The position numbers and the translations under genes were made by a program. This document shows positions 1 through 62,320 of a DNA stretch of 64,000 nt, piece after piece (the stretch's first letter is position 1; every line of letters starts with the position of its first letter). Below the pieces are notes generated by a model, which saw only the letters and a program-made list of their open reading frames with translations, was not told where the DNA came from and did not search any database. The DNA comes from a virus, in the IMG/VR virus record IMGVR_UViG_3300030106_005394, positions 1 through 64,000 of that record. One strand, 5' to 3'.

Positions 1-22
1 GTAGGTTTTGATGCTACTGCTG

Positions 23-667
23 TCATTTAGTCCTCAAGCTGAATGTTCTAGCTCCAAGTTTCTCTTCCAGAAGTGCTTGCTGTTCTGGCGTCAGATGACT
101 GGACGGCCCTGCAGGAACCTGACCAACCATATTCATATGAGGCTTAGGAACATAAGTTTTCTTAGGCGCAATACCTAGATCAGCTAGGAAAGCACGAAGC
201 TTCTGTCTATGCTTATCGGGTATAGCATCTAAGGAAAACTCAAACGACTCCTTGGTGATGTAGCACTTATCTACATTGTTCCCCATAATGGCAACAAGTG
301 TGCCAGCACGAGGATTAGGAGAGCCATCAGGCTTAGCCAAAGGTATTGACTTGACCGAACCTGTGGCAACGAACTTGATCTCCGTACCTGTATCATCACA
401 CACAGGTATTGAGGTCTTCAGCTTTGTGGCGCCAATATTTTGACGCATCCAATCAGGCTTAGCCTGACCTATGATACTGTCCTTGAGTCGATCAGCCTCA
501 GTCTTGAGGTCTTTGATCTCTCCTTGGACTTGTACATAACGAGAGCACTTATCGCCCTCAACGAAGACAGCCCCAATCGGGGCCGCCTCCACGGATATCT
601 CCACACCCGACTCACCTGATAGTGCGTCAAGGTCGAAGAATGTTTCTTCTTCTATTGGTAGTTGCAT
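23..667 (-). CDS. Hypothetical early protein
   Basis: 214 aa ORF whose start overlaps the upstream stop; short coiled coil; no recognised motif. Confidence 0.75.
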   Translation of the reverse strand: MQLPIEEETFFDLDALSGESGVEISVEAAPIGAVFVEGDKCSRYVQVQGEIKDLKTEADRLKDSIIGQAKPDWMRQNIGATKLKTSIPVCDDTGTEIKFVATGSVKSIPLAKPDGSPNPRAGTLVAIMGNNVDKCYITKESFEFSLDAIPDKHRQKLRAFLADLGIAPKKTYVPKPHMNMVGQVPAGPSSHLTPEQQALLEEKLGARTFSLRTK

Positions 668-1008
668 TATGCTTTGAACGCCTCCTTGTATGCGGTTGTT
701 AGTGTTTCTTCGCTGTTACCCTCAACACCCTTAACACGGGCGACAGGCAACGGCTTGCCATTATTATCCCTTACCCCCTTGAACACAAGGAGGGTGGGCA
801 CTTCCTTAACGCTGTGCGTGGCTGTAAAGTGGTCAGCCATCACATCCTCATGGTCAATGGGGAGGACATGAAGGCGATCACTGTCACCAGCCAGCTTACG
901 TATTACCTTTTCAGCGATACGGCATGGGCCACACTGATCCCACGTCATCAAGACGTAAGTCACTAGGCCTTTACTGATCCTTGCTTTTGCTTCTCTCAAC
1001 TCAAACAT
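667..1008 (-). CDS. Thioredoxin-family protein
   Basis: WDQCGPC active-site motif and cis-Pro motif VPTLLVFK. Confidence 0.85.
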   Translation of the reverse strand: MFELREAKARISKGLVTYVLMTWDQCGPCRIAEKVIRKLAGDSDRLHVLPIDHEDVMADHFTATHSVKEVPTLLVFKGVRDNNGKPLPVARVKGVEGNSEETLTTAYKEAFKA

Positions 1009-1384
1009 TATTAAGGTGGGCTGAGAGTGGATTGAGATTCACATTCGACTTGCGAACATGAGGCGGTGTGGTGTCTACCTCACGCTGTATAGCACGAAGC
1101 TCACCATCCGTAGGGATGTTGTCGCCACGGTAGCGTTTGCGGTAGATCTTGAGGGCTTCACCCTGCAAGGTGCGCCAGCCAACCTTTGGTAGATTGACGT
1201 ACCCTGTTACTTCGTGGGGGAAGAAGGTGGATACCCCACTGGAGCCGTCGAATACATCAACGACCTCTCGGCCGTTGAGCTTGTACACTTTGGACTGATC
1301 GAACAGTCCATAGCGTTGAGTCGCACCGATTCTTGCCATGCGGCGTACGCCAGTGCTGAAGCGTACTAGTTGAGCTTTACTCAT
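1001..1384 (-). CDS. Hypothetical early protein
   Basis: 127 aa ORF, AT-rich leader, overlaps the next gene. Confidence 0.7.
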   Translation of the reverse strand: MSKAQLVRFSTGVRRMARIGATQRYGLFDQSKVYKLNGREVVDVFDGSSGVSTFFPHEVTGYVNLPKVGWRTLQGEALKIYRKRYRGDNIPTDGELRAIQREVDTTPPHVRKSNVNLNPLSAHLNNV

Positions 1385-1396
1385 TTTATTATGTAT

Positions 1397-1939
1397 TTAT
1401 TTGGTTAGTTTGAGGGGTTCATCCTTGGTGATGGTTCCCTCCTGTTTTAGTGGATTCCACCAAGAAGGAGCAGGCGTTCCCCGCTCCCATTTGGCGAACT
1501 CTTTACTGTGGTAGTATGCCCTGTAGGCATCCACAGGATTGTCTTTTTTGTACTCCTCAGGCATAGCCTGTACTACAGGTCCATACACCTCAGAAGTAAT
1601 GTAATGATCCATGTCAGCCATCTGATCCAGTCCAGCGGCACAGAAGTGCTGATGCCCGTATCTCTCTTCGAACTCGTAACACAACTCCACAGCCAGTACA
1701 CCCAGCCAATTGAAGTTACCCTTATTGTTACCAGCCCATATGGTGCATGGGTGACGGTGATAGCCCCCACGAGCAGGATGGCCACTCTTCGTCAAAGGAA
1801 GTAGGTCAGGTTCTACTCCATGTCTGATGAGTGACGATACCTGCATCTGGAAACTTTCGACGATCATCTTCGGTACATGCTTATCACAATGTGCATGCGC
1901 CGAAGCGATCGGACATTGATCAAGATAGAAGATATTCAT
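1397..1939 (-). CDS. denV: Pyrimidine dimer DNA glycosylase / endonuclease V family protein
   Basis: MNIFYLD...HCDKHVPKMIVE..Q, HPCTIW, QAMP..Y, AYRAYY motifs. Confidence 0.8.
   Translation of the reverse strand: MNIFYLDQCPIASAHAHCDKHVPKMIVESFQMQVSSLIRHGVEPDLLPLTKSGHPARGGYHRHPCTIWAGNNKGNFNWLGVLAVELCYEFEERYGHQHFCAAGLDQMADMDHYITSEVYGPVVQAMPEEYKKDNPVDAYRAYYHSKEFAKWERGTPAPSWWNPLKQEGTITKDEPLKLTK
1422..1443 (-). promoter_or_regulatory. Conserved early motif, copy 1 (AGGAGGGAACC-N5-CAAGGA)
   Basis: 17 invariant positions shared with copies at 3660, 4562 and 4674; 38 nt before the ATG at 1384. Confidence 0.8.
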
Positions 1940-2418
1940 GCCAGCCTTTTGATGCTACTCAATAGATCATGATATGGCTTCATGTCGTACGCGTAGACCT
2001 CATCTGGGTCATGGGTTATGAAACCCACGTTGTCGTCCTCTATCTCGACACTGAGCCGAGTGATAACCACACGAAATGGCAATCGCTCCATCCTGCCTGT
2101 AACGGCTGGAGGCTCGTCTATACCCTTGACGAACTTACCTCGTGCAATCATGCACTCTGTTATGTCGTCAATCCTCCATGGGAGGTCGATCGTATCGACA
2201 TTGGGCGATGGATTCGTAACGCGAACCGCATTATCGGCTCGACACTGAGGTTGGTATGCGTGCGTGCCATCACACACAAATGCACCCAGCAGGTTGATGC
2301 TACCCATCAACTGCCACTTTATGCCATCATCCTCTATGTAACAGGAGACAGTAAGCGGGATGTGATACCCATCCAGCTCGGTCGCCTTTCTTTGGAATAG
2401 TATGCGATCTTCAGCCAT
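1936..2418 (-). CDS. Hypothetical early protein
   Basis: 160 aa ORF overlapping both neighbours. Confidence 0.7.
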   Translation of the reverse strand: MAEDRILFQRKATELDGYHIPLTVSCYIEDDGIKWQLMGSINLLGAFVCDGTHAYQPQCRADNAVRVTNPSPNVDTIDLPWRIDDITECMIARGKFVKGIDEPPAVTGRMERLPFRVVITRLSVEIEDDNVGFITHDPDEVYAYDMKPYHDLLSSIKRLA

Positions 2419-2623
2419 TATTATTCATCCTTTCTACTTCCTTCAGAGCTGCATCGACGCTCTTGTGTGGATTATTCATGCGCTGACCTCGACGAATGAA
2501 CGTCAAGGCATCCTCCGCCTGTTGGCGGTCATTTCTTGACGCCGCCAATATGCACAGAATGGTGATGGCCATAGCTACCACCAATATGCACATCAGTATT
2601 ATGATCGATTGTGGTACATACAT
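2411..2623 (-). CDS. Small membrane protein
   Basis: N-terminal hydrophobic helix; GGAG 9 nt upstream of ATG. Confidence 0.7.
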   Translation of the reverse strand: MYVPQSIIILMCILVVAMAITILCILAASRNDRQQAEDALTFIRRGQRMNNPHKSVDAALKEVERMNNNG

Positions 2624-2636
2624 ATTATGTATCTCC

Positions 2637-2735
2637 TGCAGGACTTAGTTGATTGAGCATACCCTGCCTGCACGGATATGCTTGGTTTTTAAGAAAGGCA
2701 GCCTATCTATCTTTATTCTGCGGATAGGCACGCAG
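2637..2735 (-). ncRNA. Two tandem H-type pseudoknots in an intergenic leader
   Basis: PK1 2701-2735: CUGCG/CGCAG plus GCCUAUC/GAUAGGC; PK2 2637-2682: AGCAUAUCC/GGGUAUGCU plus UGCAGG/CCUGCA. Confidence 0.6.
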
Positions 2736-2748
2736 GTTTAAGTTTACC

Positions 2749-2955
2749 TCACTCTGCATCATGTGTGCAGAAGTCCTCTATAGACGCACCCTCAGGCAAG
2801 ATTGAGTCTATGTACTGAAGCAGGTTCTCTCCTACTTCGTGACTCACAGGCCCTAGCCTGTATGTTAGCAAGTCTTTGGGGCTTCCATACCCAAAGCCCA
2901 CGACTATGTGGCAATCGTCCTCGACTGCCTCTCCACTTATGGGGCAAGTCCTCAT
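2749..2955 (-). CDS. Hypothetical small protein
   Basis: 68 aa, N-terminal CPISG, FGYGS motif, coupled to the upstream stop. Confidence 0.7.
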   Translation of the reverse strand: MRTCPISGEAVEDDCHIVVGFGYGSPKDLLTYRLGPVSHEVGENLLQYIDSILPEGASIEDFCTHDAE

Positions 2956-3275
2956 TACTCAAACTCTGGGTGAGTTACCTCATCCCTTTGTGAAGGTAAG
3001 GTGGTCAGCGGATTTTCATTCCATGAGTAGTTTAAGGGGCAATCCAATGCCCCAGAACCAAATATACTATGGTTCTCACGGAACTCCTGTTGTCTCTTTA
3101 TCTCATCCTGTCTTTTAACAAGATGAGACACGGGCTTCCCCGCCTCAACAGCAGGGAAGAGCTTTGATTGGTTCGCCATAAGCTGACGAACTCTGGCGGG
3201 TGAAAGATGCTCAGTCATGACGTGCGCCTCCTCTTCTTTCAGCCCAGAAGGCCATTGTTTGACCAATACGGTCAA
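2955..3275 (-). CDS. Hypothetical protein (true start may be near 3218)
   Basis: ORF in the early operon with overlapping stop/start. Confidence 0.55.
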   Translation of the reverse strand: MTVLVKQWPSGLKEEEAHVMTEHLSPARVRQLMANQSKLFPAVEAGKPVSHLVKRQDEIKRQQEFRENHSIFGSGALDCPLNYSWNENPLTTLPSQRDEVTHPEFE

Positions 3276-3660
3276 TCAAGCTATTTAGCTTCTGCTCCAA
3301 CTTCGTGTCTGGCATCGTGCTTGCCCTAGCCACCGTCAGCATATCATGGATATGCATAAGCTTTGGCATGGGCCTCTGCTTATTTTCATTGTAGCTATAG
3401 AAGCTACTAACTGCTTTTAGCATAGGAGCAATCACCTCAGGGTTCGATGTGGACGTTATTATGTCCATCACCGAGCAATCGAAGTCCTCCAACCTTATTG
3501 GCCGTGGACGCTTTCCAGCCTCAGCCGCCTTCTTAAAGAAGGAGTCTATTGAGTTGTGTAACTCCCCGAATACTTCGGAGAGTTCCTGTTGTTGCTCATC
3601 ACTGAGCTTGATTCTCGTGCGGTCACCATCGGCTCCGCTGTATGATATTTCGGTCATCAT
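3211..3660 (-). CDS. Hypothetical early protein (start likely ATG 3660/3657 rather than GTG 3747)
   Basis: Open frame; the upstream extension is occupied by the regulatory motif. Confidence 0.65.
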   Translation of the reverse strand: MMTEISYSGADGDRTRIKLSDEQQQELSEVFGELHNSIDSFFKKAAEAGKRPRPIRLEDFDCSVMDIITSTSNPEVIAPMLKAVSSFYSYNENKQRPMPKLMHIHDMLTVARASTMPDTKLEQKLNSLIDRIGQTMAFWAERRGGARHD

Positions 3661-3681
3661 CCTTGGAAATGGTTCCCTCCT
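3660..3681 (-). promoter_or_regulatory. Conserved early motif, copy 2
   Basis: AGGAGGGAACC-ATTTC-CAAGGA abutting ATG 3660, downstream of the terminator at 3882-3910. Confidence 0.8.
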
Positions 3682-3881
3682 ATTTTCCGTAACTCGGCTA
3701 TGAAAATGAAGCCCTGCTGGGATACGTATCTCCAACAGTACAACCACCTAGTACACCTATACAGGAACACCCTACACATACATAACACACCACAGACTCC
3801 TACTCCTCCATCTCGACACTCATCCGAAGGATGAGCCCAAGGGGCGACCTGCTGGATCGCCAACCTGCTGGATACGGGCAC

Positions 3882-3910
3882 AAAAAAAGGCCGATCCCGA
3901 AGGATCGACC
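3882..3910 (-). terminator. Rho-independent terminator
   Basis: GGUCGAUCC-UUCG-GGAUCGGCC followed by U7, just after the stop at 3928. Confidence 0.9.
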
Positions 3911-3927
3911 TCTTTAAGTAGAGTCGC

Positions 3928-4674
3928 CTATTCCTCGGAGGGAATAGGTAATTCCAATTGAGCAACTTTAGCACGACTAGCGAATAGCTCACGCTCAAGC
4001 TTGCGGATTTTTTCCGCTTGCTCTTTTTTCGTGAGGGTCTTTTCGCCATAGCTTAGGCCTACACCGCCGTTGTCAGCGTTGAAGGTTGCGTTCTTCAGCT
4101 CAAACCTAGCTCCATCCTTTTCAGCTTGTCGAACTCGGCAAGCCTCAGCGATTAAGACCGCGGAAACGCTGATCTTCTTCGCAACCTTCTTACGTGCAAG
4201 GTTTCCAGCACGTAAGGCAGCTTTGTTCTTTTCGGATGTATCCGAGAATTCACCTAGTGAGGTATCAGTTCCCGTGTCCGCTTTTGAAAAGCGGTTGCCG
4301 TTTAGACCAGATACGATTTGATCGGCAACCGTACCCACACCAGCGATATGCTCACCTTTATGGTTTGTCGATCCATTGCGTATTCCATCTACTCGAGCAT
4401 CGTTTAACTTATCGGCAACTGATATAATATCGTTACCAATAACGGTTTTAGCAAGCTCGAGCATGCGTTCTGTTTTTAGTTCTTCTTTTGCAGTCACCGT
4501 AGGCTCTGCGTTATTGTTCTGTTCAGTCATGTGACTAGTGGAAAAGTCTTGTGTCTTGTTGTCCTTGTGAGGGGTTCCCTCCTGATCTTGTGAGTTAATC
4601 CTGTTTGCATCTTGCATGGTCTGTGTCCTTGGGTTTGGGTTTGGTTTGGATCGGGCAAGGGTTGCCGTCCTCAT
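3928..4674 (-). CDS. Hypothetical first early protein (start probably ATG 4530)
   Basis: Long ORF with C-terminal coiled coil, closed by a terminator; the N-terminal 48 codons overlap regulatory motifs. Confidence 0.75.
   Translation of the reverse strand: MRTATLARSKPNPNPRTQTMQDANRINSQDQEGTPHKDNKTQDFSTSHMTEQNNNAEPTVTAKEELKTERMLELAKTVIGNDIISVADKLNDARVDGIRNGSTNHKGEHIAGVGTVADQIVSGLNGNRFSKADTGTDTSLGEFSDTSEKNKAALRAGNLARKKVAKKISVSAVLIAEACRVRQAEKDGARFELKNATFNADNGGVGLSYGEKTLTKKEQAEKIRKLERELFASRAKVAQLELPIPSEE
4562..4583 (-). promoter_or_regulatory. Conserved early motif, copy 3
   Basis: AGGAGGGAACC-CCTCA-CAAGGA, 32 nt before ATG 4530. Confidence 0.8.
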
Positions 4675-4695
4675 CCTTGTAATCGGTTCCCTCCT
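4674..4695 (-). promoter_or_regulatory. Conserved early motif, copy 4
   Basis: AGGAGGGAACC-GATTA-CAAGGA. Confidence 0.8.
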
Positions 4696-4941
4696 ACTGT
4701 ATCGCTAGGTATATCGTGCCGATGTACACAATACCCATTGTGTAAGGGGGGTGGGGAGGGGGGAACGCCATAACGCGTCGCCGTATTAATATAACCCCTT
4801 TCGGAAGTTTCCAGAAATCTGAAACTCACCCAAACACGCCCCAGAATGGGCGTAAACAGCCCCACAAGCCCCTTTAGGGGCTAAAGGCATACATAGATAC
4901 CAGAAAACAGCCCAAGAGGCTCCTACGGGCGCATATATAAG

Positions 4942-4969
4942 TTGACAAATCGGCTGACGGGTAGAAAAT
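4942..4969 (+). promoter_or_regulatory. Putative sigma70 promoter
   Basis: TTGACA-N16-GAAAAT directly before ATG 4976. Confidence 0.5.
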
Positions 4970-4975
4970 ACAACA

Positions 4976-5713
4976 ATGCATGAGAATATAGGCCCCGTAG
5001 ACGTACAAGTACCCCAAGCAACTTACTTGAGTAGATTGCCTGACGGATCAATTGCACAGGAGACGCTGATGCTAGATACGACAGGGCCACTAGAGGATCA
5101 GATACAGCGTGAAGTATCTATGAATCCACAGCTTTATGACAATACTGTGTTTGAGTTACCTAATGGATTGCTACATATGCAGGATGGTCAAGGCGTCTTG
5201 ATGGATGGAAATATGCTGGATGCTATGGCGAATCCGTCGATAATGGCAATGTTGGGACAGCCTACGAGTCTTCCTGTTCAGGCTGTGATGCCTCAAGAAG
5301 AGCTTCCTGCTGATTTTGATAGTGCTCCTATGGTAGATATGCCAGTAATGCCTGAGATGATGGCTCCTGAGGCTCCTGCAATGGGCGGTGAGTCGGGAGT
5401 CAGTAGCTTATATCAGGCACAAAGAATGGGGCCAGATTCAGAAGCTGAGTTTTTGATGCGTTATGGCTCTATGGGGCCGAAGACGGGTATGGTGTCTGAT
5501 TTTGATCCAGAAGGCTCTGGTTATGATTATGCATCTGCTGAGGCTTTTGGAATGGAGCCAGATGCTGATGGACATTTCTACAGTAGAGTACCACAGACAG
5601 GTTTACTGCTAAAAGGTGCTGGTCATCCTACGTTTGATAAGACTTTATCCGCTGAAGCAGCAGTAGGTAATACTGTTACTCAGGGGCCAGACGGCAGATA
5701 CTACTCTAATTAA
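4976..5713 (+). CDS. Hypothetical protein (Met/Pro-rich linker, globular-looking C-terminal domain)
   Basis: 245 aa ORF with its own promoter. Confidence 0.8.
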   Translation: MHENIGPVDVQVPQATYLSRLPDGSIAQETLMLDTTGPLEDQIQREVSMNPQLYDNTVFELPNGLLHMQDGQGVLMDGNMLDAMANPSIMAMLGQPTSLPVQAVMPQEELPADFDSAPMVDMPVMPEMMAPEAPAMGGESGVSSLYQAQRMGPDSEAEFLMRYGSMGPKTGMVSDFDPEGSGYDYASAEAFGMEPDADGHFYSRVPQTGLLLKGAGHPTFDKTLSAEAAVGNTVTQGPDGRYYSN

Positions 5714-5732
5714 AAGGGCTAAAAAAAGAGCC

Positions 5733-5765
5733 AAAAAAAGGGCCACCCTTTTGAGGTGACCCTTT
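5733..5765 (-). terminator. Rho-independent terminator (possibly bidirectional)
   Basis: GGGUCACC-N7-GGUGGCCC plus U7; the G-U pair works only on the minus-strand RNA. Confidence 0.8.
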
Positions 5766-5878
5766 GCGAGACAGGTTCTCCGCCAGTCAGAAACGGATTA
5801 TCCCTTGTGGAGGTAACACGGGAAAGAAGCTATCCGAAAACCCTCCAATCTCTATGATTACTGAATACCAAACTGTAT
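5733..5878 (-). ncRNA. Candidate structured small RNA (about 140 nt)
   Basis: Bounded by TTGACA-N16-TACGGT and a terminator; no ATG-initiated ORF; nested stems. Confidence 0.55.
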
Positions 5879-5881
5879 CCA

Positions 5882-5909
5882 ACCGTATGGGTGATAGTTT
5901 GACTGTCAA
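5882..5909 (-). promoter_or_regulatory. Putative sigma70 promoter for the ncRNA
   Basis: TTGACA-N16-TACGGT. Confidence 0.55.
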
Positions 5910-5957
5910 GTGGTTTTAGAAAAAAAAACTTATGCTACGCATTGGTTTTATATATGT

Positions 5958-5985
5958 TTGACAGGGGCTGGGTCGAGAATAGGAT
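5958..5985 (+). promoter_or_regulatory. Putative sigma70 promoter
   Basis: TTGACA-N16-TAGGAT, back to back with the minus-strand promoter. Confidence 0.7.
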
Positions 5986-6053
5986 ATAAACGCATGACAC
6001 TTCTTTCTATATTTACCAAGCCGTTCCAATCACATCACGAATTACATAAGCTC

Positions 6054-6710
6054 ATGTCGATGGGCTTTCTGCCTTTTCTGGCTCCTTTGGTGGGGGCTAT
6101 AGGTAGCGGACTGGGAGCTGCGGCTGGTGGCCTTGGGAGTGCGCTTGGCGGGCTAGGAGGAGCTGCTGGTGGACTAATGAAAGCTGGCGGTGGATTATTG
6201 GGTAAGGGACTTGGGGGAATAGGTAAGACTCTATTTGGTGGTGGACTAAAGAGCGGAAGCTCAGGTTTATTTGGAAGTTTACTTAAAGGAGGAAAGCAGT
6301 TGTATGGTGGGCTTGACACCATGTCAGGTGGACTTCTACCCGGCGGGCAGTCTCCTTTTCAACAGGGTGGACTCTTTGGTGCCTTCAGTAAATCTCCTAC
6401 TGTTGCCGATACTAGACCTTTTGTGTCTCCGTCAAAACCAAACATAGGTAATATGGGTGTTGATTTTTATGGCAAAGAGATGGTTGGTTCTCCAGTGCCT
6501 AGGCAAAATAATATTTCAGGTCTACTAGGTGGACCACTTGGAAAGGCATCTATGAATACTGCCTTGGATGTACTTAAACAAAGATATAGACCTCAGCCAG
6601 CTCCTCCCCCTAGCTCGTATGACCCTAGGAGGGTTGGTTATAGCTCCGCACCTCCAGCGGCTGGACCCGAAAGTGGTCGAGGTGCACTATTTAATAACTT
6701 CTCAGCATAA
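6054..6710 (+). CDS. Glycine-rich putative virion/ejection (pilot-like) protein; start 5994, 6054 or 6060
   Basis: GFLPFLAPLVGAIGSGLG...GG-rich amphipathic N-terminus; the ORF-track start 5910 lies upstream of the promoter. Confidence 0.65.
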   Translation: MSMGFLPFLAPLVGAIGSGLGAAAGGLGSALGGLGGAAGGLMKAGGGLLGKGLGGIGKTLFGGGLKSGSSGLFGSLLKGGKQLYGGLDTMSGGLLPGGQSPFQQGGLFGAFSKSPTVADTRPFVSPSKPNIGNMGVDFYGKEMVGSPVPRQNNISGLLGGPLGKASMNTALDVLKQRYRPQPAPPPSSYDPRRVGYSSAPPAAGPESGRGALFNNFSA

Positions 6711-6715
6711 ATAAA

Positions 6716-8518
6716 ATGGCTACAGGAAACCCTATACTATCCTACCTCGGAAACATTGGTGGGAACATAATGGATGTCGGTAAGAGCGTTATTGGTATGC
6801 CTACTGCACAGAGTACACAAAGTGATCTTGTTGCTGGAGCACCTAGAGTTGGGTTGCTTGGCACTATTAAGACCGCAATGCCAGCAGTAAGGGGTATTGT
6901 TAATGTCGGTAGTGATATAGGTGACGCAATTGAAGATGTCTATGGCAAACACGTAGACCATAACATGAAGGACTTTCAGCTAGGGAAAAGGATTATGCCA
7001 GCCCTAGGTAAGGGATATGGTATTATACACGAAAACATACTAGGGCCTTTATTTGGGTATTCTGGAGCGAATGAGGTGCCAAACGCAAACAAGCCATACG
7101 TAGACGCCGCGTCACCAAGAACAGACCTAACACTTGAGGAGCTAGGGTTTTTAAATGAAGCAAAAGAAAACCCAGAGAAATACTCACTTGAGGAGCTAGG
7201 GTCCATGGGACTCGCAGGTGATGGAGTTGGCCCTCAGGTGGATAGCCCCTTGGCAGAAGATAATCCTTTAACGCCAAATCAATTTGATAACCTAGAGCGA
7301 GAAGGTAAATTTAGTGGGTCTGAGGGTGTACAATTTGATGACTTAGGCTTACCTGTTGAGGGTGAAAATGAAAATGAGGCAGATAAACCTACTGCCACCC
7401 CTAAGCCTAGCACACCTATATTTGATGATTACTTAAGCATGCCAGAAACCGTAAAGTTGGGCGGCGCAGGAAGGCCTGTTGAGGCATCTTATGCAAAAAA
7501 CCAACAAAGACTGAGAGAGCTATTAAAGAACCCAGCTTTTGTTGAGCATATGAATAAATTAGGCGCTCAAGTAACAGATAGCGTTAGAGGGCCTAGAGTA
7601 TCTTGGACACAAAAAGAGCAAGTAAGGCTTGGGGGTAGTAATAGGACAGCCCTCAGAGATGTTCCTAAGCGTTTATTAATGGAGGACTTCCTTGACAATA
7701 TGGAGGTTAGGTTTGCTCCATCTAACCCTGTTGCTCCTCAGACTTCGATTATCCCTACTGCTACTCCAGAAACAGGAAGCTTGCTTGAGGCTAAGAGGAA
7801 AGGCCCAGAAGCCGAAAGTGAGTTTATGGCAAACCAATACGGAAGCCTAGGCGGCGTAACTCCTTCAGTATCGGCGGCAGAAGAAATAAAGAATGCGGGC
7901 AGGAAGGCATTTGATAACTTACTGCAATTCCTTGAGGAGGATAATATTGAGCAACTAATCCTAGAGGCAAGGAACACACCAGAAGGGCAAGCGATACTGG
8001 AAGACCTCGCTAAGACTGATTACGGCAAGAGAATTATAGATAGAGTTACTGGTAGTGCGGTATCAAATCCAGTTACAGCAGACACCACACCTACTGAAGG
8101 TTCAGCCATGTCTCCGCCGATGTTAAGGGCAGATACTACACCTACAACAGGTTCCGCTATGTCCCAACCAATGGTAAGTGCAAGTACAATGCCTCCTCGG
8201 ACGCAACCAATTGCAACCGATTACACGCCAGACGTTCAATCTACTTTGATAGACACCGATTCCCTACCCTTAGTAGGCCCAGATAATCCGTTTATAGAGA
8301 GAGCTGTTTCTGGTGTAATGCCATCCGAGCCAATAGATGCTAACCCTGTGAGTAGGGAAACATCACCATCTATCGCAGATGCAGTTATACAGAGGGTAGC
8401 AAACGGAGAAGATCCTGCGGGAATAGAAGATCAATTAAGTAAAATGGTTGATGCTGATATAATTACACAAGACGAATACGATATGGGTGTTCAAGCCCTA
8501 TTAAATGCTGTCGAGTAA
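6716..8518 (+). CDS. Acidic low-complexity protein, possible internal virion protein
   Basis: 600 aa; internal repeats ADTTPTxGSAMSxPM (x2) and LEELG (x2). Confidence 0.75.
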   Translation: MATGNPILSYLGNIGGNIMDVGKSVIGMPTAQSTQSDLVAGAPRVGLLGTIKTAMPAVRGIVNVGSDIGDAIEDVYGKHVDHNMKDFQLGKRIMPALGKGYGIIHENILGPLFGYSGANEVPNANKPYVDAASPRTDLTLEELGFLNEAKENPEKYSLEELGSMGLAGDGVGPQVDSPLAEDNPLTPNQFDNLEREGKFSGSEGVQFDDLGLPVEGENENEADKPTATPKPSTPIFDDYLSMPETVKLGGAGRPVEASYAKNQQRLRELLKNPAFVEHMNKLGAQVTDSVRGPRVSWTQKEQVRLGGSNRTALRDVPKRLLMEDFLDNMEVRFAPSNPVAPQTSIIPTATPETGSLLEAKRKGPEAESEFMANQYGSLGGVTPSVSAAEEIKNAGRKAFDNLLQFLEEDNIEQLILEARNTPEGQAILEDLAKTDYGKRIIDRVTGSAVSNPVTADTTPTEGSAMSPPMLRADTTPTTGSAMSQPMVSASTMPPRTQPIATDYTPDVQSTLIDTDSLPLVGPDNPFIERAVSGVMPSEPIDANPVSRETSPSIADAVIQRVANGEDPAGIEDQLSKMVDADIITQDEYDMGVQALLNAVE

Positions 8519-10117: not shown

Positions 10118-10299
10118 TTACACTCCACCATTCTATATACTGGTACAGCCGTGTACGTCTCGCCCTCATGTGAATACTCTACTACATCCTCCCCAAAGAT
10201 GTCCTCTGACATATTTATCACATTGACATCGCTTAATCGCAACCACTCCCCGTGCAGATTAACAAATGCAACAGACTCAAGCTTCTTCACTTCGTGCAT
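10114..10299 (-). CDS. Hypothetical protein
   Basis: Small overlapping ORF in the operon. Confidence 0.55.
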   Translation of the reverse strand: MHEVKKLESVAFVNLHGEWLRLSDVNVINMSEDIFGEDVVEYSHEGETYTAVPVYRMVECK

Positions 10300-10609
10300 T
10301 TGGTCTATTATCTATAAAGGTTCCGTGTTTTGCTGAATCCAGTAGTATGGCACAGCTTGCCGCAATGTGAGCCAAGTGACATTCGCCCGTTTCCTTATCA
10401 AGGTCTTCTCCGTCAATCCAAGCGTCTATGTGTCTTCTCATTGCACCCACATAAGTCATTGCTGATATTCTTGATCCTCTTCGCCAGTTCCAAGCACCAT
10501 ACTTCTTTGCGCCAGAGGCAAGGGCAAATGCCATTGCCTCATTAAGTGCTGGAGGTATCAAGTGTAAGGGGGGCTTTTTGGATGCAGCGTGCTGCTTAGG
10601 GTCGCTCAC
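10277..10609 (-). CDS. dATP/dGTP diphosphohydrolase domain protein (DUF5664-like)
   Basis: KPPLHLIP...GAKKYGAWNWR...AMRRH...GED.D.ETG..HLAH. Confidence 0.85.
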   Translation of the reverse strand: MSDPKQHAASKKPPLHLIPPALNEAMAFALASGAKKYGAWNWRRGSRISAMTYVGAMRRHIDAWIDGEDLDKETGECHLAHIAASCAILLDSAKHGTFIDNRPNARSEEA

Positions 10610-11745: not shown

Positions 11746-13088
11746 AGTCCGAATCTAGTTTGGGTTGTTGTTTTTGGGATGTCTTGTTCTTCTGAACCAT
11801 CATCATATGGTACGAATCTTTGGACTTCCCTTTGAAAGTTTAAGTCTGCAAATCCTTGTTGTCCGTTTCTGTTTTTAGCAACAGAGCACCTGACCAAGTT
11901 TGGGCTGCTTTGCTCCTCTGGTCTCCAGAGCATAAGGCAAACATCGCAATCTTGTTCAAGCTGTCCACTTTCTCTTAGGTCTGATAATTTAGGTCCTCTC
12001 TGAGCAATCTCGCTCTGTCGATTTAACTGACATAGCAAAAGGATTGGAATGTCAAGCTCCTTGCATAAGTTTTTAATAGAATTGGACATTTCTGCTACTT
12101 GTTGCTCTCTAGGGATGCGAGGATCTCTTGGTCTCACTAGCTGGAGGTAGTCAATTATTAGGAACCCAAGCCCACTACTCTTCAGTCGCCGTGCTCGCGC
12201 TCTAATCTGAGCAACTGAGGGAGAAGGTGTTTCATCAATCCAGAAGGTAGAGTTCTCTAAATCTTTCTCAGCTTGATCTACTGCTTTCTCTTGGTTTTCA
12301 GTAAGCAAACCATCAACCATAATATCTGCTTTCACGTTCGCCAAGGAACAGACCATTCTCTGCATTAGCGAATCTGCCGACATCTCAATGGATTGATACA
12401 GCGTAGGGATATTATCCTTTAGTACCGCTTGCAGGAAGCAATGAAGTGAGAATGCAGTCTTTCCTACGCTTGGCCTTGCAGCCAGTAGAGTCAGCTCATT
12501 CCTCTTAAATCCTTTTAGCCTCACATCCAAGTCACGTATTCCAGAAGGGATGCCGCTTTTCCCTTGCGCTTCCTTCAGCCTAGCAATGGATGACTTTGCT
12601 ATCTTAACAGCCTCAGAGCTATCGTGGAAGTATTCATTCCTGCATCTCTCCTTGGAGATTTGCATTACCTCGTTATCTACTGTATCCAAGATTGTTTCTA
12701 TCTGGATTCGTTGCTGTGATATGGAATCCAGAGTCTGATTACATAAAGCTCTCAGCTTTCTTGATGCAGAGTCATTCTCTATGATCTCGGCCCACATATC
12801 GAAGTGTAAGCTCGTCTCAACTGATCCACTTATTGAATTTAGTGTGGCAAAGTCTATTTCATCTGCCCAACCAAGTTCCTTGATTCTCTCAAGTAGACTT
12901 AATTCATCAATCTCAGGGGAGGTATCCCAGAGGGATAATAGAGCCTTGAAGATCATTTGGTACTTTAGGTCATGGAAGGATGTGTGATCTATCCTCCTGT
13001 CTAGTGCCCTGCCTATGCAGTCTGGGTCAATTATGCAACAGGCGAGTACGCCTCTTTCTGCGTTTTGGTTGTATGTTGGTTCTGTCAT
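11742..13088 (-). CDS. dnaB: Replicative DNA helicase
   Basis: AARPSVGKT, IIDYLQL, LCQLNR, LSDLRESGQLEQD.D, KNRNG. Confidence 0.97.
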   Translation of the reverse strand: MTEPTYNQNAERGVLACCIIDPDCIGRALDRRIDHTSFHDLKYQMIFKALLSLWDTSPEIDELSLLERIKELGWADEIDFATLNSISGSVETSLHFDMWAEIIENDSASRKLRALCNQTLDSISQQRIQIETILDTVDNEVMQISKERCRNEYFHDSSEAVKIAKSSIARLKEAQGKSGIPSGIRDLDVRLKGFKRNELTLLAARPSVGKTAFSLHCFLQAVLKDNIPTLYQSIEMSADSLMQRMVCSLANVKADIMVDGLLTENQEKAVDQAEKDLENSTFWIDETPSPSVAQIRARARRLKSSGLGFLIIDYLQLVRPRDPRIPREQQVAEMSNSIKNLCKELDIPILLLCQLNRQSEIAQRGPKLSDLRESGQLEQDCDVCLMLWRPEEQSSPNLVRCSVAKNRNGQQGFADLNFQREVQRFVPYDDGSEEQDIPKTTTQTRFGL

Positions 13089-13768
13089 GATAGTCCTTTC
13101 TCTTCTAGGTATTCGATTCTGTAAACGTCTAGGTTTGTAGCTTTCTCAAGCCACCCCTTTTCTTTCATCCACTTAATGAAGTCTTTCTCTGGGAATTCAA
13201 CGGAAGGCGCAGGTATTCCCTTTCCCTGCAACCAAGTTCTGCAAGCATTTCTCCAAGTTGCATTCCAGTCGGCATAAGCCTTACCGCTTCCAATTGCCCA
13301 ATTCTTGAAGAACTCAATTGCTCCTTCTGGGTCAAGGTTATTTTCGGAAGCATACTTAGGGTCACTGGGCTTCCAGTTTTCCTTCATTTTTGATCTTCTG
13401 CCTTTGATGGTTCCTTTTGATGGTTCTTTATAAAGAGAGGGGGTGTCCTGTGGGACACTACCCCCCCTGTCCTGTGGGACACCCCTGTCCTGTGGGACAC
13501 CCCCCTCGCCCAATGGAGAAACTTGGTAGACGGAAGTCTCTAATCCGCCTCCAACAGATAGCCTCTCTAGAAGTCCCTTTGATTCCAGCTTCTCAATTAG
13601 CTTAGTCACTGATCTCCTCTGGACACGAACCTTTTGAGATAGGGTCTTAATTGAGGGCCAGCAAACTCCCTCGTCATTGGCATGGTCGCAGAGCGCCAGA
13701 AGCAGAAGTAGTTCTGATCCAGCCACATCCTCGTTACTCCAAGCCTGAGTCATTAGTCTTATGCTCAC
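13085..13768 (-). CDS. Replication initiator with N-terminal winged HTH
   Basis: LLLLALCDHANDEG.CWPS..TL motif, C-terminal DW.ATWRN motif, internal iterons, directly upstream of dnaB. Confidence 0.85.
   Translation of the reverse strand: MSIRLMTQAWSNEDVAGSELLLLLALCDHANDEGVCWPSIKTLSQKVRVQRRSVTKLIEKLESKGLLERLSVGGGLETSVYQVSPLGEGGVPQDRGVPQDRGGSVPQDTPSLYKEPSKGTIKGRRSKMKENWKPSDPKYASENNLDPEGAIEFFKNWAIGSGKAYADWNATWRNACRTWLQGKGIPAPSVEFPEKDFIKWMKEKGWLEKATNLDVYRIEYLEEKGLS
13444..13500. repeat. Three iterons TGTCCTGTGGGACAC (putative replication origin)
   Basis: Exact 15-mers at 13444, 13468 and 13486 inside the initiator gene, as in lambda O. Confidence 0.85.
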
Positions 13769-38022: not shown

Positions 38023-38203
38023 GACAATGCCGAAGGCAACGCCTCAGTACATAACGGTTGATATTGATACGATGCCTAAGGTTCCAGATGCAATTCGTGA
38101 GCTAGACCCAGATGGTGTTAATGCATACGAAGATAAGATGAGGATATTTTGGATTAGTCTAGCAGACTCAATCAACAGCATCATAGAAAAGGTCGAGTCT
38201 TGA
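38009..38203 (+). CDS. Hypothetical protein
   Basis: GGAGG upstream; 64 aa. Confidence 0.7.
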   Translation: MSLVKTMPKATPQYITVDIDTMPKVPDAIRELDPDGVNAYEDKMRIFWISLADSINSIIEKVES

Positions 38204-38227
38204 CTATGAAAACTCAAACAGTAATAT
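38200..38227 (+). promoter_or_regulatory. Putative sigma70 promoter
   Basis: TTGACT-N16-TAATAT; the -35 box contains the upstream TGA. Confidence 0.55.
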
Positions 38228-38237
38228 AGTACGCGAA

Positions 38238-39095
38238 ATGGCAACTAACTTTCAGACGCCTACAGACCTTTCAGGCCACACAATAGATACTGGTCAGAGC
38301 ATAACCACAAGGACGGGATCAAGTGCTCCAATATCACATGCAAATATAGACGCAAACTGGAATCGACTCACCACAAAGGTAAATGGAATCCATGCTGGCC
38401 TAGGCGCAATTCATACTGCTGTAAACGCACTGGAGAACAGTAGTCTTTTCTCTTCTGGACTTCCAACTGCCACTGCTACTGTAAAAGGGGGAGTTAAAAT
38501 TGGAAGTGGACTATCCATGAATGGTGAAGTCCTTAGCACCGATTCTGCTGTTCTCAATAGCGCAATAGACACTAGGATCGCCACACAGGTACAAGCAGAT
38601 AACTCAATCAGCAGAAACTCTATAGAGTCTGAATGGACATGGCTTACAACTCCATATGTTGCTTCTGTTTCTGGATCAGGTACCGCCAGCCAAGGCGGCA
38701 GTAGCGTAAGTGACCCAACAAGTATTGGGTGGAAGTTTGTTCAGGTAATAGGACTAGGCGGAGTTCCTTCCACCGCAAGGCAAGTGCTTGTTAATGTCAG
38801 CGTGAATGAGCTTGATATGTGGGCATACAACCCAGATACGGGAGTGCTGGCGCCTTATGCCGCAAATGCTTGGGATAATTCTGGCGATGTCTACGCTAAT
38901 GTAGTTCTTCATGCTGGCTCGGCTCCTTGGCCAATACTCATGGGCTCCACCAACTATAAAGCATCAAACAATGCAGTAAGCTCTCCTTCTAATACTGGAG
39001 GAATAACCCCCTCAACCCATGTCGTTGTGTACTTCGCTAGGCAGGACGGCAATGGAGGATCACATGGTAATTTTGAAATCTTAGCATACCGATGA
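38238..39095 (+). CDS. Short tail fibre / spike protein
   Basis: IDANW anchor motif; LPTATATVKGGVKIGSGLS fibre motif. Confidence 0.75.
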   Translation: MATNFQTPTDLSGHTIDTGQSITTRTGSSAPISHANIDANWNRLTTKVNGIHAGLGAIHTAVNALENSSLFSSGLPTATATVKGGVKIGSGLSMNGEVLSTDSAVLNSAIDTRIATQVQADNSISRNSIESEWTWLTTPYVASVSGSGTASQGGSSVSDPTSIGWKFVQVIGLGGVPSTARQVLVNVSVNELDMWAYNPDTGVLAPYAANAWDNSGDVYANVVLHAGSAPWPILMGSTNYKASNNAVSSPSNTGGITPSTHVVVYFARQDGNGGSHGNFEILAYR

Positions 39096-60599: not shown

Positions 60600-60827
60600 T
60601 TAGCTTAGTGCTTTATGTTCGTCAATGTCAGGCAGGATCACATCCAGCCATATCTGAAGACAGGCTTCATTGTCCTCAGGAGCCAGCCTCTGCTTCCATT
60701 CGTTAGTTGTATCCGAGATGGATACCGTATCTTCCTGTAGGTCAGGCAAGCCATTCTCCGCAAGAGGACCAACTTGGCCATCGTTGCGAATGTAGCTACC
60801 TACGGATTTTAGTATTATTAAGTCCAT
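60600..60827 (-). CDS. Hypothetical early protein
   Basis: 75 aa, last gene of the minus-strand operon. Confidence 0.65.
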   Translation of the reverse strand: MDLIILKSVGSYIRNDGQVGPLAENGLPDLQEDTVSISDTTNEWKQRLAPEDNEACLQIWLDVILPDIDEHKALS

Positions 60828-61011
60828 GCTTAACCCAACAGTTTCCTAATGTGTAACCGTACTTACCCTTTCTTATTGGATACTTGGACGGATCTTTGTA
60901 TGTCCAAGTATTATTGTTACCCTTGTGCTGCTCATAGGCAGCAACCAGTGCTTGTTTTGGAGGTAGTGAGTAGCTCAGCTCCTCCATACTATGCCTAACT
61001 ATTGTCGTCAT
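60796..61011 (-). CDS. Hypothetical early protein
   Basis: 71 aa overlapping ORF. Confidence 0.6.
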   Translation of the reverse strand: MTTIVRHSMEELSYSLPPKQALVAAYEQHKGNNNTWTYKDPSKYPIRKGKYGYTLGNCWVKHGLNNTKIRR

Positions 61012-61159
61012 CGTAGTCGATTATGTCATTATCTCGCATCATATCTGCGACTTGATCTTCCGACATATACTTGAGGCATGCCATGATTACGTAGTCTTTG
61101 GTTACTAGTCCTTGATCTAGCATTTCAAGGAGCTTGTTCGTTTGCTTTCTTACGCTCAT
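60995..61159 (-). CDS. 54-aa hypothetical protein (not in ORF track)
   Basis: MSVRKQTNKLLEMLDQGLVTKDYVIMACLKYMSEDQVADMMRDNDIIDYDDDNS; TAATG coupling. Confidence 0.8.
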   Translation of the reverse strand: MSVRKQTNKLLEMLDQGLVTKDYVIMACLKYMSEDQVADMMRDNDIIDYDDDNS

Positions 61160-61491
61160 TAGTTGATCTTGGTAAAGCCTAGGTTATCAATAACGTAGAC
61201 TGATTTATTTCCTTCTTCCTTATCGAGAACTATTATGTCTCCGACTGAAGCGGAGTGCGATAGGTTATCTTCAAATACAATTAAGCCAGCATTCTCAGTC
61301 CAGCTCTCCTCGTATTCATCTGGACAATTGCACCTTGCAAAAACATTGTGCAATTGCTTCTCGTCCTCGTCGCCATCGACATATGGAACTCTAACAGCTC
61401 TCTTGTATTCATCGAAGTGACCCTTCTTTTGCCACAACTCAGCATACTGAGAATGATGCTTAATAAACGCCTCTAACTGGGGTATGTTCAT
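61159..61491 (-). CDS. YodL-like domain protein
   Basis: LHNVFARCN...HSASVGDIIVL...YVIDNLGF. Confidence 0.7.
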   Translation of the reverse strand: MNIPQLEAFIKHHSQYAELWQKKGHFDEYKRAVRVPYVDGDEDEKQLHNVFARCNCPDEYEESWTENAGLIVFEDNLSHSASVGDIIVLDKEEGNKSVYVIDNLGFTKIN

Positions 61492-62186
61492 TCGAATACA
61501 TCCTCCGTTGGGTTTACCTTTGTTGTTCCCTTGCCGTAGCACTCGATCCAGAATCCAACGTGTGCAATGAACTCTCTATTTCGCTGTTCGTGTCGAAGCT
61601 GCCTGAGCTTATCCTTGACATCGTAGCGATCTGAATCGGACTCGGCATCATCAAGTGCCAGCCCTAGATCCTCCCGCTCCTTCTTTATGTCGCTCATACT
61701 TTTGCCTGACACAAACTCACCCCTGTCACTCCATAGCTGATACATAGGCTCATCACTTTCGCCATTGTAGTGTTTCATTAGGGCATGCAGAGGGTAGTCT
61801 GTGTACTCGTGCCTAGTGCCGTTGAGCTTGAAGGGAACATGAACCTTTCGCAGTTGATCTGGGACGCAACAGCCAAGTGCATCTCTGTACTCTCGGAGCG
61901 GATCTATTATGTACTGTTCAATCCACTCCTCGGCGAACTCGCGTGACCATCCATAGTGATGGTGACCATACTCCCCCTCATAGGGGAAGTAATGGTCGTC
62001 TTGCAAAAAGGTTACGGCCGCATCATAGCCAATCCTTCTTGCTTTTTTATCGCCCCACAGATTTAGCATCTGTATTACGACTGATATTAGGTTTAGTTTT
62101 GGTTTTATAACCATTTGTCTTCCTTTGCTTTCTTTTCGATTTCGAGTGTTTCGACACTGTAGTACCTTGCGTTGCACTTGGGGCAA
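61488..62186 (-). CDS. Hypothetical early protein (start probably nearer 62114)
   Basis: Long ORF in the operon. Confidence 0.65.
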   Translation of the reverse strand: MPQVQRKVLQCRNTRNRKESKGRQMVIKPKLNLISVVIQMLNLWGDKKARRIGYDAAVTFLQDDHYFPYEGEYGHHHYGWSREFAEEWIEQYIIDPLREYRDALGCCVPDQLRKVHVPFKLNGTRHEYTDYPLHALMKHYNGESDEPMYQLWSDRGEFVSGKSMSDIKKEREDLGLALDDAESDSDRYDVKDKLRQLRHEQRNREFIAHVGFWIECYGKGTTKVNPTEDVFE

Positions 62187-62317: not shown

Positions 62318-62320
62318 AAC

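Follow-up and report, generated by a model that had tools for sequence, protein, structure and literature searches.

A 26-nt two-part box, YAGGAGGGAACC-N5-CAAGGAYRA, occurs as four full matches at the head of a long leftward operon of this phage, all on the minus strand and all oriented with the operon's sense strand. Judged from the sequence, the box is real, is kept in the nearest relatives and is constrained at the nucleotide level; as an element it is well supported, and its role is putative. The role that we tentatively favour is that of a lineage-specific, start-associated element acting in the transcript of the leftward operon.

The first-pass annotation of the window (the whole 64,000-nt stretch of DNA that was analysed) had described four co-oriented minus-strand copies, and exactly four were found, versus no match to the full 26-nt pattern in any of 100 dinucleotide-preserving shuffles. 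The positions it gave (1422, 3660, 4562 and 4674) are the low ends of a 22-nt core, and its 17 invariant bases with a variable 5-nt spacer of fixed length were confirmed as 11 + 6; in the alignment, A is also invariant at -5 and -3 before the Y. Across the copies the blocks are identical, while the flanks and the spacer differ. A search tolerating three mismatches returned the same four copies and added nothing. The annotation had also seen no copy elsewhere, which proved correct as far as this genome goes: at up to two mismatches, no further box turned up in the 72,704-bp virus record as a whole. The genome is circular, 72.7 kb in length, and belongs to an uncultured marine phage. When up to five mismatches were allowed in the virus record, the next-best sites carried four or five, and their number (21, versus 4-19 across 20 shuffles) indicates that there is no degenerate box family. 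The box is the sole dyad of two 6-mers with at least four copies in the genome, and all four boxes are confined to 3.3 kb, or 4.5% of it. In each, AGGAGG forms a perfect Shine-Dalgarno core, and AAGGA, 13 nt beyond it, supplies a second GGA site.

Table 1. Positions of the four boxes and of the neighbouring genes, terminator and linkers in the window.
Feature	Positions	Strand	Description
Copy 1	4671..4696	-	TAGGAGGGAACC-GATTA-CAAGGATGA; in the gene A leader, 53 nt ahead of ATG 4617
Copy 2	4559..4584	-	CAGGAGGGAACC-CCTCA-CAAGGACAA; spans codons 12-20 of gene A as called (QEGTPHKDN)
Copy 3	3657..3682	-	TAGGAGGGAACC-ATTTC-CAAGGATGA; includes ATG 3660, the first in the gene B frame
Copy 4	1419..1444	-	CAGGAGGGAACC-ATCAC-CAAGGATGA; non-conserved C-terminal tail of the denV-like ORF
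Gene A	3928..4617	-	ORFan, 229 aa from MQDA; first gene of the leftward operon
Terminator	3878..3918	-	strong, intrinsic; after gene A
Gene B	3211..3747	-	ORFan; 149 aa (start at ATG 3660) or 178 aa (start at GTG 3747)
denV-like gene	1397..1939	-	PF03013 family, phrog_624; conserved domain stops at residue 162 of 180
ORFan gene 3' of copy 4	1001..1384	-	lacks a Shine-Dalgarno site
Linker, copy 1 to ATG 4617	4618..4670	-	A/C-rich, G-poor; A+C 41/53
Linker, copy 2 to ATG 4530	4531..4558	-	A/C-rich; A+C 19/28; no ATG
Linker, copy 4 to ATG 1384	1385..1418	-	A/C-rich; A+C 28/34; G 0

The boxes are spread over non-coding DNA and two distinct reading frames (Table 1), which argues that they are constrained as nucleotides. 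In the frame in which copies 2 and 4 are coding, copies 1 and 3 open with a TAG stop; copy 3, if translated at all, uses a third frame, in which it would form codons 22-30 (NRREPFPRM) should gene B start at GTG 3747. Copies 1 and 2 stand in tandem, 112 nt apart, and flank the start of gene A. This gene has alternative starts at 4674, the ATG of copy 1 itself, which shares a frame with gene A, and at 4530, an invariant in-frame ATG (M49 in the 248-aa numbering) 28 nt beyond copy 2. Copy 2 carries ACA in place of ATG, so the start codon lies outside the box consensus. Copy 3 lies about 200 nt past a strong terminator, which had been claimed at 3882-3910 and proved to be real: its hairpin (about 3884-3915) with the U-run reaches -24.1 kcal/mol (z -5.7), and none of 200 shuffles was equally stable. 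The copy reported within denV is copy 4, situated in the tail of the denV-like ORF and 34 nt before the ATG of the following gene. The distances of 32 and 38 nt that had been given to ATG 4530 and ATG 1384 hold when counted from the low end of the core.

All four boxes lie less than 55 nt from a start codon, a proximity with a chance of 0.28 per site and of about 0.006 for the four together, the threshold having been set after the data were seen. The offset from box to ATG varies (0, 28, 34 and 53 nt); beyond each box the sequence is rich in A and C and poor in G as far as the first ATG, with which the downstream ORF either opens or continues. Pooled over the linkers of copies 1, 2 and 4 (copy 3 contains its own ATG), A and C make up 88 of 115 bases against a background of 51%, and G 12 of 115 against 26%; in none of the three linkers does another ATG precede that of the ORF. 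The sense strand has six AGGAGG sequences at the operon head, four of them within boxes. A 5-mer Shine-Dalgarno core was found at -20 to -4 in 14 of 75 genes, compared with 5.7% of random sites.

As to conservation in related genomes, which the first-pass annotation had named as a check on the motif, the box is kept in the nearest relatives (at the protein level) and missing from more distant relatives that share the terminase. The only homologues of gene A, P0002 (80% identity) and P0003 (57%), both keep D-Q-E-G-T-x-x-K-D as protein sequence, and copy 2 lies inside the called gene A ORF in all three homologues. Six of the eight box-encoded residues of gene A are invariant, the two variable ones being spacer codons, versus 3 of 17 in the surrounding N-terminal stretch (Fisher p = 0.01). 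Gene B has a single homologue, P0051, in which all 10 box-encoded residues are kept versus 12 of 29 just downstream, again at the protein level; by frame translation, the upstream flank of copy 3 keeps 17 of 20 residues in the relative. A contig in run X5 retains CAAGGA with the spacer changed at four of its five bases. Box and gene A are both present in G000 and in the relatives with P0002 and P0003, and both absent from the complete relatives G002-G004, a co-occurrence that is partly trivial since one copy lies inside gene A. ORFs of positions 1-8500 had no homologue in G001-G004. The region of the boxes is hypervariable and mosaic, and in relatives similarity shifts abruptly beside the box.

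If the box acts in the mRNA, the 30S subunit would bind it via the anti-Shine-Dalgarno sequence; alternatively or jointly, a sequence-specific RNA-binding factor needing both blocks would do so. Such binding may either recruit ribosomes to the first AUG downstream or keep them off it, and would thereby co-regulate four leading cistrons (gene A in its long and short forms, gene B and the gene that follows denV); most genes of this genome lack ribosome-binding sites. The candidate reader is the gene A product, which travels with the box; its structure model is poor (pLDDT 55.6). Several observations weaken this mRNA-level reading. The Shine-Dalgarno core of the box stands 15, 47, 53 or 72 nt from the AUG, whereas canonical sites of the same genome stand 5-10 nt from the start, and the 21 fixed bases exceed the usual specificity of a single-strand RNA binder or of the anti-Shine-Dalgarno sequence. 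The four boxes share no RNA fold (z -0.3, -0.8, -0.6 and -2.2), an Rfam search returned nothing, no complementary partner is present elsewhere in the phage, and no RNA-binding protein was recognised among the scanned ORFs. Finally, the reading requires promoters, and none were found.

A host CsrA-type protein would be a weaker candidate reader than the gene A product. The previously suggested resemblance to CsrA sites stood insofar as the box places two GGA on one RNA, 14-18 nt apart, within the 10-63 nt over which one CsrA dimer bridges GGA sites according to a section of a review (PMC7652899); block 2 of copy 1 matches the CsrA consensus RUACARGGAUGU at 10 of 12 positions. It failed in that ACA, a constant of selected CsrA ligands, occurs in just two of the four copies and no hairpin presents the GGA; the invariant GGGAACC of the box is unexplained by CsrA, and the scanned ORFs showed no CsrA gene.

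In the passages devoted to them (Pope et al. 2011, PMC3203893; PMC12699233), the SAS of cluster K mycobacteriophages are one 13-bp block immediately upstream of the start codon, in about 7-19 copies. On that description, SAS and box are both short asymmetric repeats that join a Shine-Dalgarno core (AGGAG in the SAS) to conserved bases unable to pair with 16S rRNA; both lie nearly always in one orientation, beside gene starts and outside the structural module, and the roles of both are putative. The box differs in its two blocks and 5-nt spacer, its four copies and its core 15-72 nt from the ATGs. It was rejected as an SAS proper, as it is not immediately upstream of starts (only copy 3 abuts one); the SAS consensus GGGATAGGAGCCC, at up to two mismatches, had one match in the window, inside the giant gene, versus 1.45 expected. 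PMC3203893 also names the stoperators of mycobacteriophage L5 and cluster A.

A possible, if doubtful, alternative to the mRNA-level element is a phage-specific promoter, where an unrecognised RNA polymerase, or the host polymerase with a factor, would start in or just after block 2 and make leaderless or short-leader mRNAs for gene A (from two promoters in tandem), gene B and the gene that follows denV. The copies are exact and lack degenerate versions, like the promoters of phage-encoded polymerases, and they are co-oriented, with the tandem pair at the operon head and one copy past the strong terminator; the conserved upstream flank of copy 3 also fits. In line with the earlier remark that these genes lack clear sigma-70 boxes, the interval from the terminator to gene B contains no sigma-70-like site that matches at 8 or more of 12 positions, and those upstream of gene A are all weak. 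Elsewhere in the phage, sigma-70-like promoters sit 6-10 nt before ATGs (4942-4969 before ATG 4976, 5958-5985 before ATG 5994, and one before ATG 38238), from which very short leaders appear to be habitual in this phage. Against a promoter, however, stand the unequal distances to the ATG, the position of copy 2 within gene A, 3' of the called start, the overlap of another copy with a start codon, and the perfect Shine-Dalgarno core plus AAGGA, which would be a coincidence. Scans of 81 ORFs with Pfam, and of 57 with PHROGs or NCBIfam, turned up no RNA polymerase, sigma factor or activator; the first-pass annotation had likewise recognised no polymerase, sigma or repressor gene in the window. 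The giant virion-type protein (5,699 aa) matched no polymerase family, PDB sequence or catalytic motif, and its structure model (pLDDT 34) is unusable; at its conserved C-terminus it is similar to hypothetical proteins of viruses, one cluster of which has LPD39 in 28% of its members.

Particular promoter classes did not fit on the features compared. The box has no -35/-10 hexamers 16-18 bp apart and no shared -35, its A-N-A-N-Y hexamer comes without a consistent -35, and the only sigma-70-like match overlapping a box (3669-3642) is specific to that copy. A sigma-54 promoter would have GG and GC doublets 10 bp apart, and here AA stands 12 nt after the GG of GGAACC. The early promoters of phage N4, few in number and close to one end of its genome, carry a conserved hairpin with a short stem and a 3-nt loop, and its giant virion protein has a polymerase domain. 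The boxes have no shared stem of that kind, and the spacer that would form it varies; for a T7-type promoter, the Pfam, PHROGs and NCBIfam scans gave no single-subunit RNA polymerase gene. The box resembles promoters of T7-group and N4 polymerases in being exact, co-oriented and multi-copy, but differs from them in the lack of a detected polymerase gene and of a hairpin and in the free 5-nt spacer in its middle. That the box represents a phage expression signal of an altogether new kind is somewhat unlikely. In a leader form, the two blocks with their Shine-Dalgarno core would act over a distance of 0-53 nt and initiate translation from the first AUG, serving genes without ribosome-binding sites, with the co-inherited gene A product as candidate co-reader; in a promoter form, transcription machinery missed by current family models would be hidden in ORFans or in the 5,699-aa protein.

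Stoperators of the L5 and cluster A type number in the dozens across both genome arms and are bound by a known repressor. The box could similarly be an asymmetric DNA operator, whose duplex a phage protein (the gene A product or a small NrdR-like zinc-ribbon protein) would bind in one orientation so as to repress or roadblock the operon head; we regard this as unlikely. Like stoperators, the box is asymmetric, holds one orientation relative to transcription and lies at gene boundaries; its copies occupy short intergenic stretches or gene ends, two sites flank the start of gene A, and box and gene A come and go together across the genomes compared. But there are just four local sites in 3.3 kb rather than a genome-wide set, the ORF scans found no repressor and the operon no repressor-like helix-turn-helix protein, the block centres are about 15.5 bp apart and so on opposite helix faces, and the co-occurrence is the partly trivial one noted above. 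A site for a strand-specific nickase or other DNA-structural enzyme, akin to the single-strand interruptions of phiKMV-like phages, is very unlikely, although the architecture agrees: as given in parts of PMC3517423 and bioRxiv 10.1101/619015, the phiKMV-group nick consensus CGAC-N5-CCTACTCCGG also has two blocks, a free 5-nt spacer and four strictly conserved copies on one strand. Such nick sites also tolerate coding DNA and hold their places among relatives, and any long invariant sequence would come to rest at the ends of genes, given the weak coding constraint there. Yet the box has another sequence, is tied to start codons and is clustered, with two copies 112 nt apart, unlike the spread nicks of T5, phiKMV and tf; the phiKMV consensus had two matches at three mismatches versus 2.45 expected; no nickase was identified, the one HNH gene lying in the region adjoining the terminase genes; and the A/C-rich linkers and first-ATG pattern would be left unexplained. 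Scarcely credible, lastly, is a functionless repeat spread by duplication or recombination: the mosaic region with its abrupt changes of similarity would suit one, but both blocks are identical in all four copies amid differing flanks and spacers, and the same pattern of blocks and spacer recurs in homologues at 57-80% identity.

Short, exact, strand-specific boxes have opened up new phage biology time and again, as with phage-polymerase promoters, stoperators, SAS and nick sites. This box belongs to a lineage with no cultured relative, in which ribosome-binding sites are missing from most genes and promoters lie right against start codons. If a dedicated reader used it as a signal for translation or transcription, the box would reveal how a swappable accessory gene set is switched on in such phages, and would also be a compact orthogonal control element; as a nick or operator site, it would extend those poorly understood classes to marine phages. 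In the more distant relatives, a different two-part box stands directly before many start codons.

Searching the window for the two-part pattern YAGGAGGGAACC-N5-CAAGGAYRA (hereafter the box: an AGGAGG-containing block 1, a 5-nt spacer, and CAAGGA as block 2) returned four exact matches, all on the minus strand, and none in 100 dinucleotide-preserving shuffles, bearing out the four co-oriented bipartite copies described in the first-pass annotation. A rescan of the window with up to three mismatches yielded the same four copies, and in the whole 72,704-bp record they stood alone at up to two mismatches, so that the earlier statement that no copy lies elsewhere held over this span. With up to five mismatches allowed, the next best sites in the record (n=21, compared to 4-19 in shuffles) each carried four or five, so the four perfect copies are clearly set apart from background. 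Moreover, apart from the box no two 6-mers with constant spacing recurred four times in the genome, and alignment of the 60-nt flanks of the four copies revealed no likeness outside the box except an invariant A at -5 and -3. The exact pattern was also found, one copy each, at 2 loci in viral contigs and at least 119 in metagenome contigs; none of the 82 pattern-matching loci that we fetched resembled the phage, suggesting that matches elsewhere are due to chance.

The ends of the record overlap by 99 bases, indicating a circular or circularly permuted genome. The boxes occupy the first 3.3 kb of a leftward operon of ~17 kb, whose minus-strand genes run from ~4700 to 1 and then through the record junction to ~60600. 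ORFan genes A and B come first, followed by a denV-like gene (matching phrog_624 at E 4.5e-47 and Pfam PF03013 slightly below cut-off), a thioredoxin-like gene, a PRTRC cassette, a SNF2 helicase and, last, a Xer-like tyrosine recombinase. The terminator 3' of gene A, already called strong in the first-pass annotation, proved so upon folding (-24.1 kcal/mol, z -5.7), and directly after it lie two more stable hairpins, one UUCG-looped (-26.2 kcal/mol, z -3.1). The PRTRC cassette, comprising PRTRC proteins E, C and B with ThiF-family (E 2e-68) and RadC/JAB proteins, is a ubiquitin-like system of the plasmid or ICE type, here carried by a phage.

Boxes and other features of the phage genome (window coordinates unless stated)
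Feature	Position	Strand	Remarks
Box copy 1	4671-4696	-	internal ATG 4674 in frame with gene A; ATG 4617 53 nt past box
Box copy 2	4559-4584	-	ATG 4530 28 nt past box
Box copy 3	3657-3682	-	internal ATG 3660
Box copy 4	1419-1444	-	internal ATG starts 5-codon frame; ATG 1384 34 nt past box
Terminator 3' of gene A	3882-3910		
Repeat (CG)TATCC(C)AGCAGG x3	3713-3873	-	spacer between genes A and B; copies at 3873, 3857, 3723
Abrupt similarity changes	3640-3750; 4530-4620	-	beside boxes
Sigma-70-like promoter	4942-4976	+	TTGACA-16-GAAAAT, ends 6 nt before ATG
Sigma-70-like promoter	5958-5996	+	TTGACA-16-TAGGAT, ends 8 nt before ATG
Sigma-70-like promoter	~38200-38240	+	TTGACT-16-TAATAT, ends 10 nt before ATG
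dATP/dGTP diphosphohydrolase N-terminal domain gene	10277-10609	-	PF18909, E 1.6e-29
HTH_36/DnaD-like initiator gene	13085-13768		
Tandem GTCCTGTGGGACAC	13445-13503		three copies, 18-24 nt apart
Single AGTAACA(C/T)	20032; 22845		just 5' of genes 20052 and 22867
Giant protein, 5,699 aa	41382-58481	+	no Pfam, PHROG or PDB match
70-aa zinc-ribbon protein	62105-62317	-	NrdR-like or Ogr/Delta-like, PF22811, E 2e-8
PRTRC cassette, 889-aa SNF2 helicase, Xer-like recombinase	60600-64000 and L286:4074-11129		L286 interval is genome 64074-71129, beyond window

As for relatives, the phage has none in culture, and a nucleotide search with the first 8 kb gave no match. The terminase matched only a Rhodococcus phage among cultured phages (27% identity) and one locus among genome contigs, on a metagenome-bin contig labelled uncultured archaeon; its IMG/VR relatives were 64-84% identical. 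Four of the latter (G001-G004), compared whole, have replication and structural modules in common with the phage, and G002-G004 also its recombinase, SNF2 and ThiF genes; no homologue of the ORFs from 1-8500 was found in the four. A pattern search of these and a fifth relative (G005, included in this search only) did not find the box, giving 3 matches across the five records, each with 3 mismatches; the nearest of the five, G001, a fragment with 62% completeness, stops short of the region corresponding to the boxes. Four DNA sequencing runs examined as contigs were nearly all identical to the window. No tRNAs were found.

The comparative evidence on the box is protein-level throughout. Copies 2 and 4 lie inside ORFs in a single shared frame, QEGTxxKD, in which copies 1 and 3 open with TAG; copy 3, if translated at all, uses a different frame, NRREPFPRM. 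Since 17-21 identical bases extend over non-coding DNA and two reading frames, protein constraint cannot be their source. Gene A has only two homologues among 5.8 billion proteins (two representatives in the 50% library), both of which begin MQDA and retain D-Q-E-G-T-x-x-K-D. Over the box, 6/8 encoded residues of gene A are invariant, the two variable ones being exactly the spacer codons, compared to 3/17 in the remaining N-terminal stretch (Fisher p = 0.01). The one homologue of gene B, called with the same upstream extension, keeps 10/10 residues over the box, 17/20 before it and 12/29 after it. In a variant contig from one of the DNA runs, the alignment runs to the end of block 1, followed by a spacer changed at 4/5 bases and then CAAGGAT; we infer that block 1 is intact there (the mismatch position was seen for 1/7).

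Copy 4, reported earlier to lie inside the denV coding sequence, does so in the non-conserved end of the denV-like ORF: homologues align up to residue 162/180, and most of 80 denV-like homologues end 0-10 residues past a conserved WW, the two closest (72% identity) 2 residues past it. Viral contigs yielded no locus akin to gene A, to gene B or to a 127-aa gene, and the five loci matching a back-translated pattern of the conserved gene A peptide were all unrelated. Conservation in related genomes, on which the first-pass annotation had staked its motif, thus divides: it is seen in the protein sequences of the nearest relatives and not in G001-G005. As a sequence observation, the box is confirmed, and is strengthened by this nearest-relative conservation.

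Of note, similarity to relatives shifts abruptly next to boxes: gene B and its relative are identical at 32/35 residues to just beyond the box and at 12/29 thereafter, and divergence of the variant contig begins at the copy 2 spacer. It is thus possible that the boxes delimit exchangeable modules at points of recombination.

We next consider the position of the boxes relative to gene starts. The called start of gene A, ATG 4617 (MQDA), has AAGGA 8 nt upstream, and all three homologues retain the in-frame ATG at 4530 (M-T-E). The true start is uncertain, given that a low-confidence model (pLDDT 55.6) shows residues 1-43 as disordered and that two of three frames are open there; for gene B the candidates are GTG 3747 and ATG 3660. 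Irrespective of the true starts, no box is more than 55 nt away from a start codon, for which the chance is 0.28 per site and ~0.006 for four, with a threshold set post hoc. In all four copies, the first ATG after the box opens or continues the downstream ORF. The three linkers between box and ATG are rich in A+C (88/115 bases, background 51%), poor in G (12/115, background 26%) and free of internal ATGs. Copy 2 has ACA at the position of the ATG in the other three, which, along with the variable offset, indicates that the start codon is not part of the consensus.

In this phage, only 14/75 genes are preceded by a 5-mer Shine-Dalgarno core between positions -20 and -4, compared to 5.7% of random sites; where present, the core lies 5-10 nt from the start. 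Together with three sigma-70-like promoters that end 6-10 nt upstream of an ATG, this suggests that leaderless or very short-leader mRNAs are usual here, as far as sequence can indicate. A two-part box of another kind, GTAACAC followed after 6-11 nt by a GT(A/T)AC-like part, occurs in the more distant relatives G002 and G003, 11 and 14 times, respectively (<1 in shuffles; loci L152-L161 cover both; examples in G003 at 46358, 36193 and 70841). These boxes are co-oriented with genes, some are preceded by TTGACA, and 8 and 9 of them, respectively, have an ATG no more than 12 nt downstream. No such two-part box was found in the present phage or G001; the phage has two single AGTAACA(C/T) sites. 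It thus seems usual in the family to have lineage-specific boxes close to gene starts.

The nearest described counterpart is the start-associated sequence (SAS) of cluster K mycobacteriophages, an asymmetric repeat around AGGAG that adjoins gene starts, has conserved bases unable to pair with 16S rRNA, and is of putative function (PMC3203893, PMC12699233). Compared to those descriptions, the box is likewise asymmetric, combines a Shine-Dalgarno core with non-pairing conserved bases and sits near gene starts, but differs in sequence, spacing and copy number. By analogy, it would act like a start-associated box; it is best filed under the broad kind of phage-specific repeated cis-elements, in no named family, as a clear-cut, as yet unexplained element of an uncultured phage. 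Neither the SAS consensus nor the phiKMV nick consensus occurred above chance. Searches found no -35/-10 pair or GG-N10-GC arrangement at the boxes, no hairpin or RNA structure common to the four copies, no Rfam family match and, in the rest of the phage, no partner of complementary sequence. Several candidates were rejected on the layout of the copies: A-N-A-N-Y before block 1 as a -10-like element (no consistent -35), a tyrosine-recombinase core site (arms not inverted, spacer varying among copies), iterons or a centromere (too dispersed, not palindromic), a peptide motif (differing frames and non-coding DNA) and TAG read as glutamine (frames close soon after).

What the box does can be stated only tentatively. 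The reading we put forward, as a possibility, is that of a start-associated element acting in the mRNA, suggested by four features: the box contains a perfect AGGAGG together with AAGGA, its linkers are A/C-rich and unstructured, the first ATG after it leads into the downstream ORF, and ribosome sites are scarce in the genome; 4/6 sense-strand AGGAGG in the operon head fall within boxes. Against it, distances from core to AUG are long and variable, and 21 fixed bases exceed the need of ribosome pairing, so that under an mRNA-level role a specific factor would have to read both blocks. A phage-specific promoter, which we consider rather unlikely, would explain why the copies are exact, why two stand in tandem, why one follows the terminator and why other promoters are lacking, but leaves the ribosome-site content to chance and comes without an enzyme. 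Indeed, Pfam, PHROGs and NCBIfam scans (of 81, 32 and 37 ORFs, respectively, all of about 60 residues or more) found no RNA polymerase, sigma factor, repressor or CsrA, in agreement with the first-pass annotation; its proposal of an early promoter, possibly served by a virion-delivered polymerase, is a candidate reading.

The architecture alone would also suit an asymmetric operator, or a nick site such as that of phiKMV, whose consensus likewise includes 5 unconstrained spacer nucleotides and is present in four copies, all on one strand. Both readings agree less well with the clustering and with the tie to ATGs; we consider the operator improbable and the nick site very much so. A neutral repeat is scarcely credible, and the remaining probability goes to readings outside these five.

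Regarding candidate readers, simple patterns revealed no polymerase motif in the giant protein. Its first 350-580 and last ~1,550 residues are common with relatives, while the middle ~3,500 are unique. Similarity of the C-terminus is to hypothetical proteins of viruses, one cluster of which has LPD39 in 28% of members, a likeness that points towards a polyvalent protein (PMC5512222). Judged by sequence, the giant protein is probably an injected protein of the polyvalent type; a model of its C-terminal 1,133 residues (pLDDT 34) was too poor for fold comparison, so that a polymerase fold is conceivable. In the operon, the only small protein noted as a candidate nucleic-acid-binding regulator is the 70-aa zinc-ribbon protein. 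Elsewhere in the window, the tandem GTCCTGTGGGACAC copies within the initiator gene are probably origin iterons, and a further gene encodes the N-terminal domain of a dATP/dGTP diphosphohydrolase, a type of protein that accompanies base-modified genomes.
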